Source of the DNA: Candidatus Moraniibacteriota bacterium
GTDB taxonomy: Bacteria; Patescibacteriota; Minisyncoccia; Moranbacterales; UBA1568
Length of the DNA stretch: 64,000 nucleotides
Assembly (NCBI GenBank): GCA_049287005.1
Contig: JBAQEZ010000003.1
Coordinates: 31,493-95,492 of the forward strand
Direction: 5' to 3'
Under the pieces are notes generated by a model. The model searched no databases, was not told the origin of the DNA, and saw only the letters and a list, made by a program, of their open reading frames with translations. The position numbers and the translations under genes are program-made. Below are positions 10,599 to 64,000 of the stretch, piece by piece. Positions within the stretch are counted from its first letter, which is position 1, and every line of letters begins with the position of its first letter.

Positions 10599-11162
10599 TT
10601 AGTTTTTGTACAATTCCTTGACTTGGAAAAGAATGTACCAGCCGATGATGGCGCTGATAGCCCCGCCGATAATATTGAAAGCGAGGATGCTACCGATCAG
10701 ACTCACGATGCTGGCATAAAAAACCAAGTTCCATCCGCCTTTAGTACGTTTGAAAAGTCCCGGTACGGCCATCACTTCCATGACGAGTGTAATGACAGCA
10801 ACCGCCAGCGATATGATGGCTCTGAGTCCCCAGCCGAATCCCCAGCCAGCACCCATCATAGCAAACGGTGTCAAGACAGCTGAAAGGCCGAGAGCGGCAA
10901 AAATAAACGGGAGTGCCAGAACAGCAAAAACGATTACGAGGTACGGCGATACTTTCGCAATGAATTCCTTCAGCTCCGCCGGGAGAGCAAAGGGAGCTTT
11001 TTTTACCATATATTCATCGAGCAGCGCCTCGAGCTGACCGATTATATTTTTCGTTTCTGCCTTCATGTTGCCGGTGCTATTCGCAGCGCCAGACTGATTC
11101 TGCCCGCCCTGATTTGACGCACCACTCGCTTCGCCTTGCGGCACATTGCCTTCCATATGCAT
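10599..11162 (-). CDS. Hypothetical integral membrane protein (about 4 TM, Gln/Gly/Ser-rich N-terminal tail)
   Basis: Hydrophobic helices VSPYLVIVFAVLALPFIFAAL, AIISLAVAVITLVMEVMAV and others. Intrinsic terminator downstream. Confidence 0.5.
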   Translation of the reverse strand: MHMEGNVPQGEASGASNQGGQNQSGAANSTGNMKAETKNIIGQLEALLDEYMVKKAPFALPAELKEFIAKVSPYLVIVFAVLALPFIFAALGLSAVLTPFAMMGAGWGFGWGLRAIISLAVAVITLVMEVMAVPGLFKRTKGGWNLVFYASIVSLIGSILAFNIIGGAISAIIGWYILFQVKELYKN

Positions 11163-11166
11163 ATGA

Positions 11167-11649
11167 TTAAAAGTAAACGTCTTCCCCTTCCCCTATTATA
11201 TTCCCCTCTTCGATTTCACGCAAAATTTCCGCCGGGATCGGGTTACGTTTGGGGCTGACTCCCGGGTAGCGCCAGGCGCTGATGATACGCAAGCTGGTAG
11301 CTGGTAGCGGGTAGCGGGTAGGAAGAGAGGGTTGGGCATTCTTTTTTTGTTGTTGGTTTCTGATAATAAACATCACCCAGATTTCCTGCTTCCATGTTTC
11401 CTTGCCCTCCGCCTTTTTTATCGACACCGGTTGCATCACCGCCACCGTCTTCGGCACGATGCCCTCTTCGCGGCGCTTGGGGTTGCGGATCACGCTCTTC
11501 ACTCTCTGTTCAGAGAGGCCATACTGCTGCATCTTGTGCTGGGCATGCAGCGTAAACTGATATTGCCCCTTGCCTGATGCATTGACCTTCCGTCTCTCCT
11601 CAAAGCGCTCCTTGGCCTTGCGCACGAAATCCTGATAAGGGGAACCCAT
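11167..11649 (-). CDS. Hypothetical protein, possibly with a DUF4258-like core (very tentative); carries an in-CDS heptanucleotide repeat
   Basis: Segment YQFTLHAQHKMQQYGLSEQRVKSVIRNP...TVAVMQP is loosely reminiscent of DUF4258. It is 4 nt downstream of, and probably co-transcribed with, the membrane protein gene. Confidence 0.4.
   Translation of the reverse strand: MGSPYQDFVRKAKERFEERRKVNASGKGQYQFTLHAQHKMQQYGLSEQRVKSVIRNPKRREEGIVPKTVAVMQPVSIKKAEGKETWKQEIWVMFIIRNQQQKKNAQPSLPTRYPLPATSLRIISAWRYPGVSPKRNPIPAEILREIEEGNIIGEGEDVYF
11293..11320. repeat. Heptanucleotide tandem repeat (GCTGGTA)2(GCGGGTA)2 inside the 11167-11649 CDS
   Basis: Read directly from the sequence: four tandem 7-bp units, 28 bp in total. 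Confidence 0.7.
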
Positions 11650-11778
11650 ACTTCAATGATCAATCATCAAGCTCCAACCACCAAGGAAATTTCAATATTC
11701 AATCGTCAACAATCAAACGTTCTCTGTTTGGTTATTCGGAAACTGGTCATTGAACGTTCCTTGTGTCTTGGAATTCGG

Positions 11779-60878: not shown

Positions 60879-60962
60879 GCCCAGGTGGCGGAATTGGTAT
60901 ACGCGCTAGCTTGAGGTGCTAGTTCTCGCAAGGGATTGGAGGTTCGAGTCCTCTCCTGGGCA
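60879..60962 (+). tRNA. tRNA-Leu (anticodon GAG)
   Basis: Acceptor GCCCAGG/CCTGGGC, anticodon stem CTAGC/GCTAG with loop TTGAGGT, a long variable arm, T-loop GGTTCGAGTCC and discriminator A. Confidence 0.85.
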
Positions 60963-61007
60963 CAGGGGGAATGAAATGAAGGTGAATTACAACTGGAGAC
61001 AAGAAAG

Positions 61008-61080
61008 CGCGCTTAGCTCAGTTGGTTAGAGCACCTCGTTTACACCGAGGGGGTCCAAGGTTCGAGTCCTTGAGCGCGCA
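61008..61080 (+). tRNA. tRNA-Val (anticodon TAC)
   Basis: Acceptor GCGCGCT/AGCGCGC, D-arm GCTCAGTTGGTTAGAGC, anticodon stem CCTCG/CGAGG with loop TTTACAC, T-loop GGTTCGAGTCC. Confidence 0.9.
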
Positions 61081-61215
61081 CAGGAGAACGAAGTGAAGCC
61101 TGTACACGCTCAACAAGCCAACTGCTTGGCTTGCTGAGGGACGAGAAGGCCGGAGCGCTGCCGTAAGGCCGCGAGGCGGGGTCGAGAGCTTGCGAAAGTA
61201 AGACTCGTGACCGAA

Positions 61216-61231
61216 TCCTTGAGCGCGCACC
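61216..61231 (+). repeat. Degenerate direct copy of the tRNA-Val 3' end (TCCTTGAGCGCGCAC), about 135 bp downstream of the intact tRNA-Val
   Basis: CGAGTCCTTGAGCGCGCACA in the tRNA (61062-61081) versus CGAATCCTTGAGCGCGCACC in the copy (61212-61231). The T-loop in the copy is disrupted. Confidence 0.6.
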
Positions 61232-61319
61232 AGCGAATGGAATGAGTTTGTGTAAGGATAGGGGTATTTCAGTGTATAAGTCCGCTTATCCACAGGAAAT
61301 ACAAGGAGATTGACAATTT

Positions 61320-61391
<72 letters not shown>

Positions 61392-61562
61392 CAGAATGTC
61401 TGTGGAAAGGAAAGTCCCTGGGTTTCAGCTATCGTTTTGAAATGATAAGATTGAACTGGGAAGGGGTCGGGAAACGGGAGTTTCCCGTATGGGGTGACCG
61501 CGAGCTGTCGCGGGCTAGAGGGCGGAAGCCCTATAGAGCGCAGCCCGAAGGACAAGCAGTGA

Positions 61563-61583
61563 AATTCCTGCCCCTCAGCACCA
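61563..61583 (+). repeat. Degenerate direct copy of the tRNA-Phe 3' end (TCCTGCCCCTC[G/A]GCAC), about 170 bp downstream of the intact tRNA-Phe
   Basis: AATCCTGCCCCTCGGCACA in the tRNA versus ATTCCTGCCCCTCAGCACCA in the copy. Confidence 0.55.
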
Positions 61584-61636
61584 AAATGGCTGTATAAGGT
61601 GTGGATAAGCTGGGAAAAGGCCTATTCTAGCCCTGG

Positions 61637-61708
61637 GGGACTGTAGCTCAGTGGTAGAGCGCGCGGCTCATAACCGCTTGGTCGATGGTTCGATCCCATC
61701 CAGTCCCA
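61637..61708 (+). tRNA. tRNA-Met (anticodon CAT; elongator-type G1-C72 pair; tRNA-Ile2-lysidine not excluded)
   Basis: Acceptor GGGACTG/CAGTCCC, anticodon stem CGCGG/CCGCT with loop CTCATAA, T-loop GGTTCGATCCC. Confidence 0.85.
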
Positions 61709-61775
61709 CAGAAGAAATGAAAAATTGAGCCAATGTCATCGCTTAGCGGGCCTGCCTCGCCGAAGCGTAGCGTAG

Positions 61776-61850
61776 GCGGGTATCGTATAGCGGCTATTAT
61801 GTGACCTTGCCAAGGTTAAGATAGGGGTTCGACTCCCCTTACCCGCTCCA
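61776..61850 (+). tRNA. tRNA-Gly (anticodon GCC) with encoded CCA
   Basis: Acceptor GCGGGTA/TACCCGC, anticodon loop TTGCCAA, T-loop GGTTCGACTCC, discriminator U and an encoded CCA. The 3' end is overlapped by the stop region of the recombinase gene. Confidence 0.85.
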
Positions 61851-63446
61851 AGTTGCAGAAACAGGCTCAAAAGAGTCTGTTTTTGTTTTATCTGAAGCAA
61901 AATCAGTCAGTTCTAACCTAGGGTTTTGAGCCGTTATCATTTCCATGCCTTTTTCAATGATCTGATACTGCTTTCGGAGAGTGATATCGATCTGTCCATC
62001 CTTCAGGACGAAGCTTGAACCAAGCGCCCGTAGTATTGAAGTCTTGGTTTTATAGTCTCCTTGATTGAAATTATGCTTGGCGTAGATGGCGAATTTGAAT
62101 GTTTTCTCGGTCAGTTCTAACCATTCATCCGCCCGTTGACTTAAAGTGATCAATTTCTGTTCGATTTCAGCTTTCTCTTTAAGAAGGGATGACTTCTGGC
62201 TTTTGAATTCTTCATCGCTCAAGAGTTCTTTTTCGGAGTTAGCGGTTGAGATATATATCTTGAGAAGGTTATCGATGCTCTCTTGGCAGGCCTTGAGAGC
62301 TTTCTGCTGATTCTTGAGCATGATATTCCTGTTATCGACCTCAAGCTCGTTGTCGCGGTTGAGTATTTCCAGGGCAAAAGTGAGAAAGCTCTCTGGTAGA
62401 GCGATCCTGTCTAGCTTTTCAAGAATCTGCTGATTGAGCTTATCGAAAGAAACAGACTTCTGCTTGCAAGGAATATTAATCTTTCTTCGCGTGCAGTGGT
62501 GATAGATAAAGCTTTTGATGACATTCTCGCTCTTTATCCGTTTGGTTTTGATTTCGGTCGTCACATAGCAACCGCATTCACCGCAGCGGATCGTCCCACG
62601 ATAAGGAAGGTCTTTGTGTTTCGTCTGCGGTTTTGCCTTGATTCCTAAGAGTTTCTGGACATAATCGAATTCCCCAGGCGTGATCATCGGCTCATGCTTG
62701 CCTTGATACACCTTATTATCCCATTCGTACTCACCGTAGTAGAAAGAATTGGTAAAAATATCGTACCCATGGCTTTCATAGAGCTTCACCTCGCCATTCT
62801 GTTTCGTTCTTCGTAGCCCCCATTCCTCGTTAGCAATCTCAATTATCTTAGAGATCGAGTATTCACCAGTGAGCATCAAATCCCACATCTTCCGAACCAA
62901 AGGAAACTTTTCTTCATCCGTATGAATAATCTTGCTGCCTTGGTCGCCGCCTTTGTCGTTTTTATATCCGATAGGTGCTCGTCCTGGTCGCCATCCCTTC
63001 TCTGCCTTGGAAAGCATCCCTCGCTTCACATCCTTGCTCAAATCGATGCTGTACTGCGTAGCCATCCCCAATTCAACGCTCATCAGTATCGTGTTGTCGC
63101 CAGTCTTGTAGTCTCTTCCTGGCGTTTGAACCGATTGGACGATGCCTTGCTGCATCAGCCACATGATCTCTCCTCCGTCGATCGGGTTTCGAGCCAAGCG
63201 ATTGAGTTTCCAGCAGAGTATTCCATTCGCTTTTCCTTTCTTGATCTCGCTCAGCATCTTTTCGAACTGCGGACGGCCGGGCTTTTTGGCGGAAATGCTT
63301 TCTTGGTAGGTGCCTTTTATTTCAAGCTTAAGCAGTCTGGCTATCCGCTCCAGTTCTTTCCTCTGATCTTCGATTGATTGGATCTGACGATCTTCGCTGT
63401 CCGTGGACTTACGAAGATACATGAAATACCCGGTGTCCCTTTTCAT
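61839..63446 (-). CDS. Large serine recombinase (site-specific integrase; resolvase-type catalytic domain + recombinase domain + zinc ribbon)
   Basis: Catalytic N-terminus YLRKSTDSEDRQIQSIEDQR with the Ser nucleophile. A large C-terminal recombinase domain with a zinc ribbon CGECGCYV...HHC and a long coiled-coil region; about 535 aa. The track ORF starts at 63473; the start was chosen at MKRDTGYFMYLRK. Confidence 0.85.
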   Translation of the reverse strand: MKRDTGYFMYLRKSTDSEDRQIQSIEDQRKELERIARLLKLEIKGTYQESISAKKPGRPQFEKMLSEIKKGKANGILCWKLNRLARNPIDGGEIMWLMQQGIVQSVQTPGRDYKTGDNTILMSVELGMATQYSIDLSKDVKRGMLSKAEKGWRPGRAPIGYKNDKGGDQGSKIIHTDEEKFPLVRKMWDLMLTGEYSISKIIEIANEEWGLRRTKQNGEVKLYESHGYDIFTNSFYYGEYEWDNKVYQGKHEPMITPGEFDYVQKLLGIKAKPQTKHKDLPYRGTIRCGECGCYVTTEIKTKRIKSENVIKSFIYHHCTRRKINIPCKQKSVSFDKLNQQILEKLDRIALPESFLTFALEILNRDNELEVDNRNIMLKNQQKALKACQESIDNLLKIYISTANSEKELLSDEEFKSQKSSLLKEKAEIEQKLITLSQRADEWLELTEKTFKFAIYAKHNFNQGDYKTKTSILRALGSSFVLKDGQIDITLRKQYQIIEKGMEMITAQNPRLELTDFASDKTKTDSFEPVSATWSG

Positions 63447-63492
63447 GCTGTTACTAAAAATTTGTACGCACAAGAACGATCATATCGCGCTC

Positions 63493-63660
63493 TCATTTTC
63501 TCGTACACTGAGAATCATCTTTCTTCATGGGCTTATAGATCGACCGAATCATCTCGACCAAGCTCTCGGCGCACTCCAAAGACTCTTCGAGAGACAGTTT
63601 TTCTCCTGTTTCTTTCTCGTAGAGCCTTTGGAATTTGAGAGCATCTGATTCGGTGATCAT
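63493..63660 (-). CDS. Small hypothetical protein (55 aa) of the integrated element
   Basis: ORF not in the track: MITESDALKFQRLYEKETGEKLSLEESLECAESLVEMIRSIYKPMKKDDSQCTRK. It lies between the recombinase and the 93-aa ORF on the same strand. Confidence 0.3.
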   Translation of the reverse strand: MITESDALKFQRLYEKETGEKLSLEESLECAESLVEMIRSIYKPMKKDDSQCTRK

Positions 63661-63676
63661 CGTGGTATTGGGTCAG

Positions 63677-63958
63677 TTAAAAAGGGACGCTCTCCTGTTC
63701 AGGGATGTTCTCATTGTTCACGACGTTCACATCGTCATCCTTTTTGGTAATCTTGTAGCGCTTTCGGAGAATCTCGATCTTTTCGTAGCCATCCTCAGTA
63801 AGGGCGTACCCGTCCCTTGTCTTTTCGGTTTTCAAGTCCATAATCCTTTTGATCAAAAACGCCATCGTCTTCGGGCTTTTTTGATCGGCGATACGCTGAC
63901 CCTCGTTGAATTTGTCAGTGATCCTTTTGATTGTTATTCTTGTCCAGCCCTCATCCAT
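63677..63958 (-). CDS. Small hypothetical protein (93 aa) of the integrated element, possibly DNA-binding
   Basis: A charged, Lys/Arg-rich 93-aa ORF followed by a further minus-strand ORF running off the window edge. Confidence 0.4.
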   Translation of the reverse strand: MDEGWTRITIKRITDKFNEGQRIADQKSPKTMAFLIKRIMDLKTEKTRDGYALTEDGYEKIEILRKRYKITKKDDDVNVVNNENIPEQESVPF

Positions 63959-64000
63959 CAGTTCGCAAATGGCTTCGAGAATTTGATACCTATAACTAAG

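Follow-up and report, generated by a model that had tools for sequence, protein, structure and literature searches.

The Ccr recombinases of SCCmec offer a familiar case of a non-phage island inserted at the very 3' end of a conserved housekeeping gene, which stays functional. In reviews and databases, integration into tRNA genes is ascribed to tyrosine integrases, and serine integrases are described as cutting within protein genes; the authors of Islander state that serine integrases are not known to target tRNA genes. The known serine-recombinase IMEs disrupt dispensable protein genes (PMC5704250). In serine integrases, the zinc-ribbon-domain motif is shifted by 5 bp between attP and attB (PMC3783163). 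The locus considered here lies in a 64,000-nucleotide stretch of a Candidatus Moraniibacteriota contig (the window) and consists of a large serine recombinase (LSR) gene running into the 3' end of tRNA-Gly(GCC). The region is probably the attL of a non-phage island of about 11.7 kb, with the LSR crossing over at GCTC, at the tRNA 3' end. In the literature searched, no description was found of serine integrases that target tRNA genes or of this clade, which is not proof of novelty. The features of the locus are collected in Table 1.

Table 1. Features at the left junction of the element, in window coordinates
Feature	Position	Strand	Remarks
tRNA-Leu(GAG), Val(UAC), Phe(GAA), Met(CAU), host genes after rplS	60879-61709	+	ARAGORN, Rfam
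tRNA-Gly(GCC), integration target	61776-61850	+	ARAGORN; Rfam 56.7 bits vs gathering score 29
LSR gene, 535 aa, ATG start	61839-63446	-	last 12 nt overlap tRNA-Gly
Proposed common core GCTC, would hold the crossover dinucleotide	61845-61848		sequence of both junctions
Terminator-like hairpin, 14 pairs, and T-run, for the tRNA operon	61855-61895	+	inside coding sequence of LSR tail
TCAGTTCTAACC, with core motif GTTCTAAC at 61910-61917	61907-61918		spans R-L-E-L codons of LSR tail
55-aa ORF	63493-63660	-	matches no known family
C-terminal 107 codons of a 467-aa ORF running beyond the window	63677-64000	-	

The LSR gene and tRNA-Gly(GCC) are convergent and overlapping: the stop codon TAA lies in the tRNA acceptor stem, where tta at 61839-61841 is its reverse complement. 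The initial annotation had described a minus-strand recombinase of about 535 aa that points at the tRNA and ends at or in its 3' end, with a resolvase-type domain (YLRKSTDSED), a recombinase domain, a zinc ribbon and a coiled coil; the reading frame bears out the former, and both Pfam and an AlphaFold model agree with the latter. Besides the YLRKSTDSED motif, the protein contains the Resolvase domain (PF00239, 5.9e-20, residues 17-160), the Recombinase domain (PF07508, 4.8e-9) and Zn_ribbon_recom (PF13408, 3.8e-5), whose 24.4 bits are slightly below the cut-off of 25.3. In the AlphaFold model, the N-terminal catalytic domain is followed by the recombinase domain and by a zinc ribbon carrying a long inserted coiled coil (helices 352-399 and 411-462), the domain order expected of an LSR, and the model is of low confidence at residues 511-535. 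Foldseek aligns the protein over its full length with integrase-DNA complexes (E 1e-21 to 1e-12), and the top structural matches are full-length serine integrases, namely the SPbeta-type complexes, phiC31, LI/A118 and Bxb1. Furthermore, comparison with 30 homologues reveals that R12, S14, R83 and R86 are invariant, as are the zinc-ribbon cysteines C288, C291, C318 and C327. The protein is a bona fide large serine recombinase, and its gene is the sole recombinase gene found in the element.

The extent of the element was established by extending the window with 100%-identical contigs and reading the right end in L085. It covers about 11.7 kb, from the tRNA-Gly 3' end (window ~61849) to a distal site (window ~73586). 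The GC content falls from ~0.52 to 0.44 at tRNA-Gly, lies between 0.31 and 0.47 inside the element versus ~0.5 outside, and jumps at L085 ~10650-10800; the initial annotation of an integrated element running past the window is thus upheld, the extension showing a low-GC element that begins at tRNA-Gly. The distal site, at L085 10733-10759, consists of GTTCTAAC, 18 nt and then GCTC. The full right-end sequence reads TCAGTTCTAACC gtattaac TACCCAGCT CAG, followed by a hairpin and a T-run, a host-type terminator. Next come the host genes HAD, VKOR, 3D, UDG, DHH and RbfA; in L005, whose LSR is 80% identical, the 3D-domain gene likewise lies beyond the element.

At this right end, the direct repeat of the tRNA-Gly 3' end (attR) that had been expected is absent: no such repeat of at least 9 nt is present at or near the boundary (within 10 kb and the full extension). 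The only tRNA sequence in register is the 4-nt GCTC, accompanied by a look-alike of the tRNA end with 5 extra nt, the spacing from motif to core being 18 nt in the element arm vs 13 nt in the tRNA. The Islander pattern, in which one end bears the intact tRNA and the opposite end a displaced piece of it, does not describe this element, and the "classic tRNA-attL-integrase arrangement" of the initial annotation is a property of tyrosine integrases. Dyad symmetry is at chance level in the reconstructed attP and attB and among the four half-sites, the right half-sites (P' and B') are not parsable, and neither an attP nor an attB junction from excision or integration of this element was observed.

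On the left, tRNA-Gly(GCC) is the last gene of a Leu-Val-Phe-Met-Gly cluster behind rplS. Its T-loop motif GTTCGACT is at 61827-61834, its discriminator T at 61847 and CCA at 61848-61850; each of the other four tRNAs is followed by CAG, and none of them encodes CCA. Structured elements follow tRNA-Val and tRNA-Phe. CCA follows tRNA-Gly at the left junction and CAG follows the pseudo-end at the right junction. The two junctions (CCCGCTC followed by CAAGT on the left, CCAGCTC followed by AGATA on the right, L085 10756-10759) have only GCTC in common in register. The hairpin and T-run just downstream of the tRNA are carried by the element, and terminators at element-free sites are unrelated to them. 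Such a terminator occurs family-wide: the mean fold z-score is -3.4, and 57 of 66 loci have a T-run with 6 or more T in 8 positions. A crossover in the terminator loop was also considered and was rejected because, on the left, the two halves of the stem form better pairs with one another than with the halves from the right junction.

Comparison with related genomes, the check suggested by the initial annotation, reveals the same site without the insertion at 12 related tRNA-Gly loci, three of them with conserved flanking genes, and shows that the recombinase is not a conserved core gene at this position. In L099, which two further loci (L097 and L091) resemble, rplS and the Leu-Val-Phe-Met-Gly cluster are followed by the 3D-domain gene 1.26 kb on, whereas 13.9 kb separates tRNA-Gly from this gene in the window genome. 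Half of the element-free sites (6/12) read GCT-CAG. In L009 and L010, related elements occupy different tRNA-Gly genes, and their distal ends are identical through AGCTC and unrelated beyond it. In L024, the LSR tail is joined directly to a distal-type arm, an attP-like junction. Repeats of 17-24 nt of the tRNA end in L005, L013 and L082 were initially taken as attR; they are now regarded as older relics because they are located 60-215 nt outside the conserved distal site.

Taken together, these comparisons suggest how the island may integrate. The LSR would act as its integrase, recombining at the short GCTC core at the extreme 3' end of tRNA-Gly. The left half of attB would be formed by the T-arm and the 3' acceptor strand of the tRNA, and the P arm of the element would be a tRNA look-alike, composed of the T-loop-like GTTCTAAC, 18 nt and the same core. 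The P-arm motif lies 5 nt further from the core than the tRNA T-loop, which would correspond to the attP-vs-attB offset of serine integrases. Integration would keep the tRNA body intact, and the native terminator would end up beyond the distal site. The element would supply a replacement terminator, whose antisense strand, together with that of the tRNA end, would provide the final ~25 codons of the integrase, its disordered tail. For a crossover at GCTC, the predicted junctions are ...CCTTACCCGCTCAGATAAAAAC... (GACTCCCCTTACCCGCTCAGATAAAAACAAGGCTC) for the empty site and ...AACTACCCAGCTCCAAGTTGCAG... (CCGTATTAACTACCCAGCTCCAAGTTGCAGAAACAGG) for the circle. The second GTTCTAAC, in the LSR tail, is given no role by this scheme; as a DNA-constrained motif at the end of the folded protein, it may be a further recombination or control site.

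The geometry recurs across the LSR clade as one fixed arrangement at tRNA 3' ends. The clade extends throughout Patescibacteria: 1788 proteins fall within E<=1e-10, and GTDB species genomes contain 400 relatives. Of the 71 loci with enough sequence, 65 have a convergent tRNA where the LSR gene ends; these cover 11 isoacceptor types, Gly, His, Asn and Trp among them. The C-termini of the clade's LSRs either end in W/L-S-G or continue as antisense tRNA. Genes of the RT, HEPN-like, HD, SNase and SpoVG-like types are found in the related elements, which are 6-11 kb long.

The distal arms of these elements repeat only the last 3-5 nt of the cognate tRNA. For the 21 distal sites scored against their cognate tRNA, the window's included (two more loci have no tRNA), the match to the tRNA end at the fixed 18-nt register averages 3.4 contiguous nt, vs 0.2 for non-cognate tRNAs and a maximum of 0.62 in 300 permutations. 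The distal sites were located by motif search, and their frequency is accordingly a biased estimate; in 647 kb upstream, the GTTCTAAC motif occurs 33 times in the same orientation vs 9 in the opposite one. The core common to both arms amounts to 4-9 nt and is cognate-tRNA-specific, in fixed register. Outside the last 3-5 nt, the similarity between the tRNA and the acceptor-like stretch of the P arm is weak, and an ungapped comparison of the distal arm with the whole acceptor strand is not better than the control. If the last 3-5 nt before the crossover set the tRNA specificity, this would explain the movement of the clade among at least 11 tRNA types. A tentative generalization, somewhat short of an even chance, is that in this phylum-wide clade the universally conserved tRNA T-arm serves as the zinc-ribbon-domain half of attB and the attP arm as a decoy tRNA end shifted by 5 bp, that the choice of tRNA depends on its last 3-5 nt, and that the LSR gene overlaps its own site and terminator.

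The alternative that survives best, albeit an unlikely one, retains the same element and integrase and places the crossover at the quasi-palindromic GTT-CT-AAC found at 61910-61917 and at the distal end. The tRNA end, terminator, tail codons and pseudo-tRNA arm would then be a "landing pad" left in the chromosome after excision, and the recombinase of the free form would end in ...RLELNF*. The predicted junctions are ...AAATCAGTCAGTTCTAACCGTATTAAC... for the attB type and ...GAAATTCAGTTCTAACCTAGGGTTTTG... for the circle, also given as GCAAAATCAGTCAGTTCTAACCGTATTAACTACCC and AGTCAGAAATTCAGTTCTAACCTAGGGTTTTGAGCC. The appeal of this reading lies in the TCAGTTCTAACC of the LSR tail, a 12-nt exact direct repeat of the element's distal end. 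Its motif is shaped like the centre of a serine-recombinase site, with a non-palindromic dinucleotide between inverted triplets, and lies exactly where the folded protein ends in the AlphaFold model. Furthermore, the tail GTTCTAAC is under clear DNA-level selection, whereas other occurrences of this amino-acid motif in the gene show no such constraint. In the metagenomic locus L096, which has no recombinase, tRNA-Gly is followed by a terminator of the element type, by the tail as far as the motif and by an arm of the distal type; the locus looks like a recombination product between the two GTTCTAAC motifs. In L009 and L010, the conserved block of ~58 bp is centred roughly on the GTTCTAAC motif and not on GCTC. 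The tail repeat, L096 and this block count against the GCTC model. Nevertheless, no such pad exists at 11 of the 12 element-free tRNA-Gly sites. The terminator and tail, together with the distal arm, are shared by related elements at different tRNA genes and in different hosts, which implies that they move with it. In every clade, the final 3-5 nt of the arm track the cognate tRNA, so that an event at the tRNA end is needed in any case, and the LSR tail shows protein-level conservation throughout the family.

The island could alternatively be an immobile, fixed remnant with decayed sites in which the recombinase persists, which appears improbable. The pseudo-acceptor of the right end contains an inserted A relative to the tRNA (TACCCAGCT vs TACCCGCT), as might be expected of decay; the same inserted-A arm occurs in L005 and L007, however, so that the insertion belongs to the arm itself and is no sign of decay. 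Such loci often contain relic sites and solo cassettes. A free form was not observed, and a search for circular contigs found no terminal overlaps. Against a remnant speak the full-length recombinase ORF, which keeps every family-invariant residue including R12, S14 and the four zinc-ribbon cysteines, the variable presence of the element among related genomes, and the differences in size and cargo between elements at the same site (9.3 kb in L005 vs 11.7 kb here).

The gene content bears on the nature of the island. Among its ~12 genes are regulators, one gene resembling a primase and one cargo gene of a defence-like kind. Related elements keep the 467-aa protein, for which no Pfam, PHROG, NCBIfam, PADLOC or PDB-sequence match was obtained, along with the DnaG-type zinc-ribbon protein. 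Domains of a relaxase, a coupling protein or a T4SS were not detected, although remote homologues are possible among the four unannotated ORFs (467, 295, 194 and 136 aa), and the repeats around the HTH/M78 module show no significant fold. Small ORFs of 55 and 93 aa and one at the window edge had been proposed as a phage early or regulatory region; the 55-aa ORF is real, while the 93-aa ORF (63677-63958) is the C-terminus of the off-window 467-aa ORF and hence one gene with the edge ORF. Related elements also carry the 55-aa ORF, beside or near their LSR (66-74% identity in L005, L009 and L010), and the N-terminus of a protein in L013 appears similar to it when read by eye. Directionality factors (RDFs) are too diverse for recognition by sequence, and none was identified in the window element; the 55-aa ORF is a candidate regulator or directionality factor.

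The island is probably a mobile one, and it is not a prophage. That it is a temperate phage with the LSR as its integrase, a possibility raised by the initial annotation, is very improbable, even though the integrase adjoins a tRNA and the element encodes an Xre-type repressor paired with an M78 peptidase as well as a primase-like zinc ribbon (DnaG-type) with PHROG primase matches. The complete element is just 11.7 kb long, Pfam and PHROGs reveal no gene for a capsid, portal, terminase, tail or lysis function in it, and the supposed early-region ORFs at the window edge are mostly one 467-aa gene. The genes of its relatives, 6-11 kb in size, include the RT, HEPN-like, HD, SNase and SpoVG-like ones, and 2.9 million IMG/VR contigs yield a single weak relative with 36% identity. 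Finally, the notion that the LSR is a host core gene, or an invertase or resolvase merely located beside the tRNA cluster and unrelated to any insertion, could draw on the recombinases of 60-80% identity at the same tRNA-Gly position in the related MAGs L005, L008, L010, L011 and L025, but has a negligible chance given the 12 tRNA-Gly loci without an LSR (three with conserved flanks), the low-GC, variable adjoining genes, the well-defined far end and the full integrase-type architecture.

With 400 relatives in GTDB species genomes and >1,700 proteins, the clade comprises serine integrases with a fixed geometry at tRNA 3' ends. Such elements are of the kind missed by finders that use the tRNA-fragment signature or tyrosine integrases, and virus catalogues hardly contain them (1 IMG/VR match). 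In Patescibacteria, whose genomes are very small, they appear to be a main vehicle of accessory genes and of defence-like ones. The proposed site logic, with a conserved T-loop motif, a 5-bp shift and a 3-5-nt core, would be an unusually readable form of attP-vs-attB discrimination and could guide the design of integrases for tRNA loci; if correct, these enzymes would be retargetable integrases for such loci.

Among the known systems, serine-recombinase IMEs and PICI-like satellites are likewise small, combine an integrase, an Xre/M78 pair and a primase-like gene with cargo, and have no autonomous transfer machinery. Of the PICI-like modules, the integrase, repressor and primase/replication functions are present in the window element in some form. 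In contrast, no relaxase or oriT and no packaging, helper-interaction or helper-interference gene is recognisable in it. The CcrA, CcrB and CcrC recombinases of SCCmec are also LSRs, and the window LSR gives partial NCBIfam matches to them; its scores (CcrB 68.5 bits vs a cut-off of 900, CcrA 53.8 vs 700, CcrC 51.8 vs 900) are far below the cut-offs, so that it is not a Ccr member. The SCCmec target is the protein gene rlmH/orfX and not a tRNA, and a pair of recombinases acts there, in other hosts, whereas a single recombinase gene is present here.

The tRNA/tmRNA islands of tyrosine integrases (Islander signature; P4-, P22- and SaPI-like) also start at the 3' part of a tRNA with the integrase adjoining, and they likewise keep a functional tRNA, pile up old relics and carry defence-like cargo. 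Their recombinase is unrelated, the window LSR not being the tyrosine integrase that Islander looks for. Their duplicated tRNA fragment is at least 15 nt long, compared with 4-9 nt in common here, and their crossover takes place in the anticodon loop or T-loop, while here it would lie at the discriminator/CCA.

In comparison with the phage-type serine integrases (LI/A118, phiC31, Bxb1, SPbeta and TP901-1), the window LSR exhibits the same domain order and a full-length structural match at a sequence identity of just 12-19%. In both cases a short sequence is common to the two junctions, and the arm motif of the window element, 5 bp further from the core than its chromosomal counterpart, would correspond to the attP-vs-attB shift described for those enzymes (PMC3783163). 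The carrier differs, being in the window clade a 6-12-kb island without virion genes whose host range is Patescibacteria. The site of the phage-type enzymes is inside a protein gene, whereas here it is the 3' end of a tRNA, and, unlike theirs, the reading frame of the window LSR runs across the proposed attachment site into the tRNA.

The five-tRNA cluster 3' of rplS (Leu, Val, Phe, Met, Gly) ends with tRNA-Gly(GCC), and a gene for a 535-residue large serine recombinase (LSR) converges on its 3' end. This arrangement, already recognized in the initial annotation, is confirmed by the ARAGORN and Rfam tRNA calls, by the Pfam domains and by an overlap that comprises the final 12 nt of the gene, because its TAA stop codon, the reverse complement of tta at the T-stem/acceptor-stem junction, falls inside the tRNA. 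The AlphaFold model (30 homologues; mean pLDDT 82) contains catalytic, recombinase and zinc ribbon domains, the last carrying two long inserted helices. Since its top PDB matches are full-length serine integrases on att DNA (SPbeta-type, phiC31, LI and Bxb1) at 12-19% identity, the modelled protein is regarded as a genuine but distant LSR; all structural LSR features tested are present, and its scores fall far under the cut-offs of the named subfamilies XisF and CcrA/B/C.

The exact LSR protein is also encoded on a 28.5-kb contig of GCA_049304235.1 (Candidatus Moraniibacteriota), which is covered in full by two look-ups, L001 and L085, and is 100% identical to the window across the shared 12,162 nt. 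Counted from 61849 to the core copy in L085, the element measures 11,738 bp. The GC content is 0.31-0.47 throughout this block and ~0.5 on either flank, and host genes (HAD hydrolase, VKOR, 3D-domain protein, UDG, DHH phosphoesterase and RbfA) lie past the far end. The proteins of the block give no match to capsid, portal, terminase, tail, lysis, relaxase or secretion families; with no virion or lysis family among them, the earlier reading of the element as a phage is not supported. The 93-aa ORF previously listed as separate is the C-terminal end of a 467-aa gene leaving the window.

An HTH_3/M78-peptidase pair, whose best PADLOC matches are CapH/CapP, is divergent from the 823-aa DUF4238/SEC-C gene. 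Homologues of the latter, 45-60% identical, occur in Smithellaceae, Gammaproteobacteria, Acidobacteria and others, and its product is a candidate for horizontally transferred defence cargo. The HTH/M78 module is flanked by five copies of a 49-nt repeat and two of a 100-nt repeat; these fold as RNA no better than shuffled sequence and may be duplicated operator or promoter regions.

Coordinates of the features in the window, in look-ups L001 and L085 of the extending contig, and in related loci (L-numbers)
Feature	Position	Strand	Assignment or remark
tRNA-Gly(GCC)	61776-61850	+	ARAGORN, Rfam
T-loop octamer GTTCGACT	61827-61834		G53 to N60
Proposed core GCTC	61845-61848		tRNA 3' end
Core copy	L085 10759		far end
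LSR ORF, 535 aa	ATG at 63446, stop 61839-61841	-	Pfam Resolvase, Recombinase, Zn_ribbon_recom
Tail motif GTTCTAAC	61910-61917		codons R-L-E-L
12-nt direct repeat	61907-61918; L085 10730-10741		tail motif; distal motif
Third motif GTCAGTTCTAACC	62114-62121		codons W-L-E-L-T
55-aa ORF	beyond LSR in element
467-aa ORF	beyond LSR		C-terminal end within window
204-aa protein	beyond LSR		DnaG-type zinc ribbon
ORFs of 295, 136, 194, 49 aa	beyond LSR in element
M78 peptidase + HTH_3 protein	beyond LSR		CapH/CapP-like pair
823-aa protein	beyond LSR		DUF4238/SEC-C
HTH_3/M78 pair with 823-aa gene	L001 788-4547		~window-equivalent 68900-72660
Repeats flanking HTH/M78 module	L001 3335-3560, 4885-5380
211-aa protein	beyond LSR		GC climbs again directly after its gene
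Structured elements after tRNA-Val and tRNA-Phe	61082-61240, 61440-61595
tRNA 3'-end copies outside distal sites	L005 2243-2259; L013 3026-3042; L082 3282-3305		17-24 nt
LSR abutting partial tRNA	L079 and L039 (~11580-11650)

When metagenome contigs are scanned with the 5'-terminal 41 nt of the tRNA-Gly gene, 12 tRNA-Gly loci emerge, and a recombinase is present in none (0/12). At L099, rplS and the same five tRNAs are followed by a 3D-domain gene 1.26 kb past tRNA-Gly, and a similar arrangement is seen at L097 and L091; the window genome has 13.9 kb between the tRNA and the homologous gene. Because these empty sites retain conserved flanking genes, insertion is indicated and a core gene at this position is excluded. 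The integrated element originally suspected is supported by its low-GC block, its defined far end and relatives lacking it. L005, whose LSR is 80% identical, has a 9.3-kb element of its own at this tRNA, with the same 3D-domain gene past it. At L096 (WBZP01001273.1), a 'solo cassette' without recombinase lies ~60-110 nt past tRNA-Gly and consists of an element-type terminator, an LSR-tail remnant extending to GTTCTAACC and a fused distal-type arm; ~7.5 kb separates it from the conserved 3D-domain gene, and in this stretch ORF N-termini resemble, by eye, Y-family polymerase and SRAP peptidase.

At the GC jump that marks the far end, the intergenic sequence reads ...agtcagaaattcAGTTCTAACC gtattaac TACCCAGCT CAG ataaaaacaaggctc(17 nt)gagccttatttgtt... 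Here ...CCCAGCT precedes CAG and a terminator-like hairpin, and GCT-CAG followed by a terminator is found in 6 of the 12 element-free tRNA-Gly sites on related metagenome contigs. CAG directly follows each of the four other cluster tRNAs, for which CCA is not encoded; at the left junction, CCA directly follows tRNA-Gly. GCTC is the sole in-register sequence common to both junctions. Repeat searches detected no tRNA 3'-end copy of the tyrosine-integrase type at the far end, and neither the expected attR repeat of the tRNA-Gly 3' end nor the proposed 'classic tRNA-attL-integrase arrangement' is borne out.

Conserved structured elements of ~120-150 nt follow tRNA-Val and tRNA-Phe, each ending in a copy of the upstream tRNA's 3' end (T-loop to discriminator); neither has an Rfam match. 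The post-Val type keeps its position in L005 and L090, with 10 of 44 predicted pairs covarying among only 3 sequences. The post-Phe type is found after tRNA-Gly in L088, L099 and L097 and appears to move between tRNA genes, because the copies in L088 and L099, which were aligned, terminate in the 3' end of tRNA-Gly. These structures are candidates for a miniature integrated element or for a tRNA-linked RNA.

Relatives of the LSR number 1788 at E<=1e-10, nearly all of ~535 aa and from Patescibacteria; IMG/VR yielded a single, weak relative. From the 400 relatives in a scan of one genome per GTDB species, the loci of the best 80 were examined. A tRNA converges on the LSR 3' end in 65 of the 71 loci with >=90 nt downstream, the targets being His (19), Gly (18), Asn (7), Trp (7), Ser (4), Gln (3), Ile (2), Met (2), and Thr, Lys and Glu (1 each). 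The C-termini end in W/L/M-S-G or read on into antisense tRNA ('ESNP...', 'ALPTEL' etc.), and a hairpin with T-run lies 3' of the tRNA, inside the LSR tail, family-wide (mean fold z-score -3.4; T-run in 57/66 loci). Two family elements can share one small genome (L022 and L043 on JACKFN010000003.1, at Thr and Trp; L034 and L045 in CAYWNT01, at Ile and Asn). As exceptions to the rule, the LSR abuts just the 3' 30-45 nt of a tRNA in L079 and L039, and a distal-type arm, with an attP-like junction, in L024 and L032; for these four, tandem arrays, free forms or disrupted tRNAs are conceivable. Many TPA_asm MAG contigs titled uncultured Gammaproteobacteria, Bdellovibrionales or Methanosarcinaceae archaeon (L012-L014, L019, L020, L054 and others) show a Patescibacteria-type recombinase/tRNA context, which suggests mislabelling or mis-binning.

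Over 647 kb upstream of the recombinases, GTTCYAAC (tRNA orientation) has 33 occurrences in the same orientation and 9 in the opposite one, and 23 occurrences, including that of the window, share one layout: GTTCTAAC, 18 nt, and a host-specific hairpin with T-run. Twenty-one of these sites have their cognate tRNA in the locus, and there the 18 nt finish with 3-5 nt identical, in fixed register, to the final nucleotides of that tRNA (Gly, GCT; Thr, CGGCT; Trp, CCTG or CGTG; His, CACC; Asn, GAG). Contiguous identity averages 3.4 nt for cognate vs 0.2 for non-cognate tRNAs (maximum 0.62 in 300 permutations); the remaining acceptor strand matches the distal arm only weakly. Related elements at tRNA-Gly(CCC) and tRNA-Gly(GCC) of different hosts (L009 and L010) have distal ends identical through AGCTC and unrelated beyond, and their LSR-end terminator and tail are likewise conserved; the outer boundaries of the mobile DNA are therefore the tRNA end and the core. 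The LSR-to-distal-site distances imply elements of ~6-12 kb. Virion genes are absent from the three related elements examined, whose products include a reverse transcriptase accompanied by a HEPN-like protein, as well as an HD protein, a nuclease and SpoVG-like proteins. In L005, L013 and L082, copies of the tRNA 3' end starting at the T-loop and followed by another terminator are located 60-215 nt beyond the distal site; they resemble remnants of earlier insertions with T-loop crossover, in a layered history at these tRNA genes.

From the arrangement, the boundaries and the statistics, which are observed directly, we infer half-site roles and a crossover position. The tRNA T-loop octamer stands 13 nt from the discriminator, and the element-arm octamer GTTCTAAC stands 18 nt from the equivalent base, 5 nt more. 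Serine integrases have their zinc-ribbon-domain motif 5 bp nearer the crossover in attB (bp 11-19) than in attP (16-24), and this difference is how the integrase distinguishes the two (PMC3783163). Because the two shifts are equal, it is proposed from the sequence that the T-arm and acceptor 3' strand of the tRNA would form the left half of attB and the distal arm that of attP, with the crossover dinucleotide within the short common core at the discriminator (GCTC here). Integration would leave the entire tRNA body as host DNA, the element would provide the sequence following it (CCA, terminator and LSR-tail codons), and the native terminator would be displaced to 11.7 kb away. In L024 the LSR tail is joined straight to a distal-type arm in place of a tRNA, which looks like an unrecombined attP. 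Dyad-symmetry tests of the attachment sites gave chance-level results, and the right half-sites could not be parsed.

A second GTTCTAAC lies in the LSR tail, 59 nt past CCA in 41 of 52 loci and exactly where pLDDT falls from ~90 to ~55, at the end of the confidently folded LSR. Of 80 genes, 70 have G as the last base of the preceding codon (background 21%), 64 use TTA or TTG for the hydrophobic residue before Glu, 76 encode Glu by GAA and 79 have C as the first base of the next codon; in WLELTE, the same amino-acid motif 68 codons upstream, synonymous sites vary freely. By this codon pattern, the tail motif is under DNA-level selection. A third match, 204 nt from the tail copy, may be due to chance in this genome, since its position varies freely at synonymous sites in the family. 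A crossover between the tail and distal motifs, instead of at the tRNA-end core, is kept as an alternative because GTT-CT-AAC has the form of a serine-recombinase centre; the DNA-level constraint and the 12-nt exact direct repeat containing both motifs agree with it, and L096, with tRNA-Gly, terminator, tail up to the motif and distal-type arm, is the expected leftover of such recombination. It is nevertheless rather unlikely, as 11 of the 12 empty sites have no such pad, both halves of the pad move with the element and the distal arm follows the cognate tRNA. Crossover within the core at the tRNA end is preferred.

Integrative elements with serine recombinases use sites inside protein genes with very short repeats (IME review, PMC5704250), and a 2026 provirus survey reports that cores are longer for tyrosine than for serine integrases and that tyrosine integrases prefer RNA genes. 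No description of this LSR clade was found in the literature searched, the coverage of which was incomplete; the serine integrases described differ from it in site choice and layout. Tyrosine-integrase insertions leave a copy of the tRNA 3' end, whereas this element carries none. In functional terms the closest parallel is SCCmec, where an LSR-borne island occupies the 3' end of a housekeeping gene. The proposed site logic of the present clade can be read family-wide and departs from the textbook rule.
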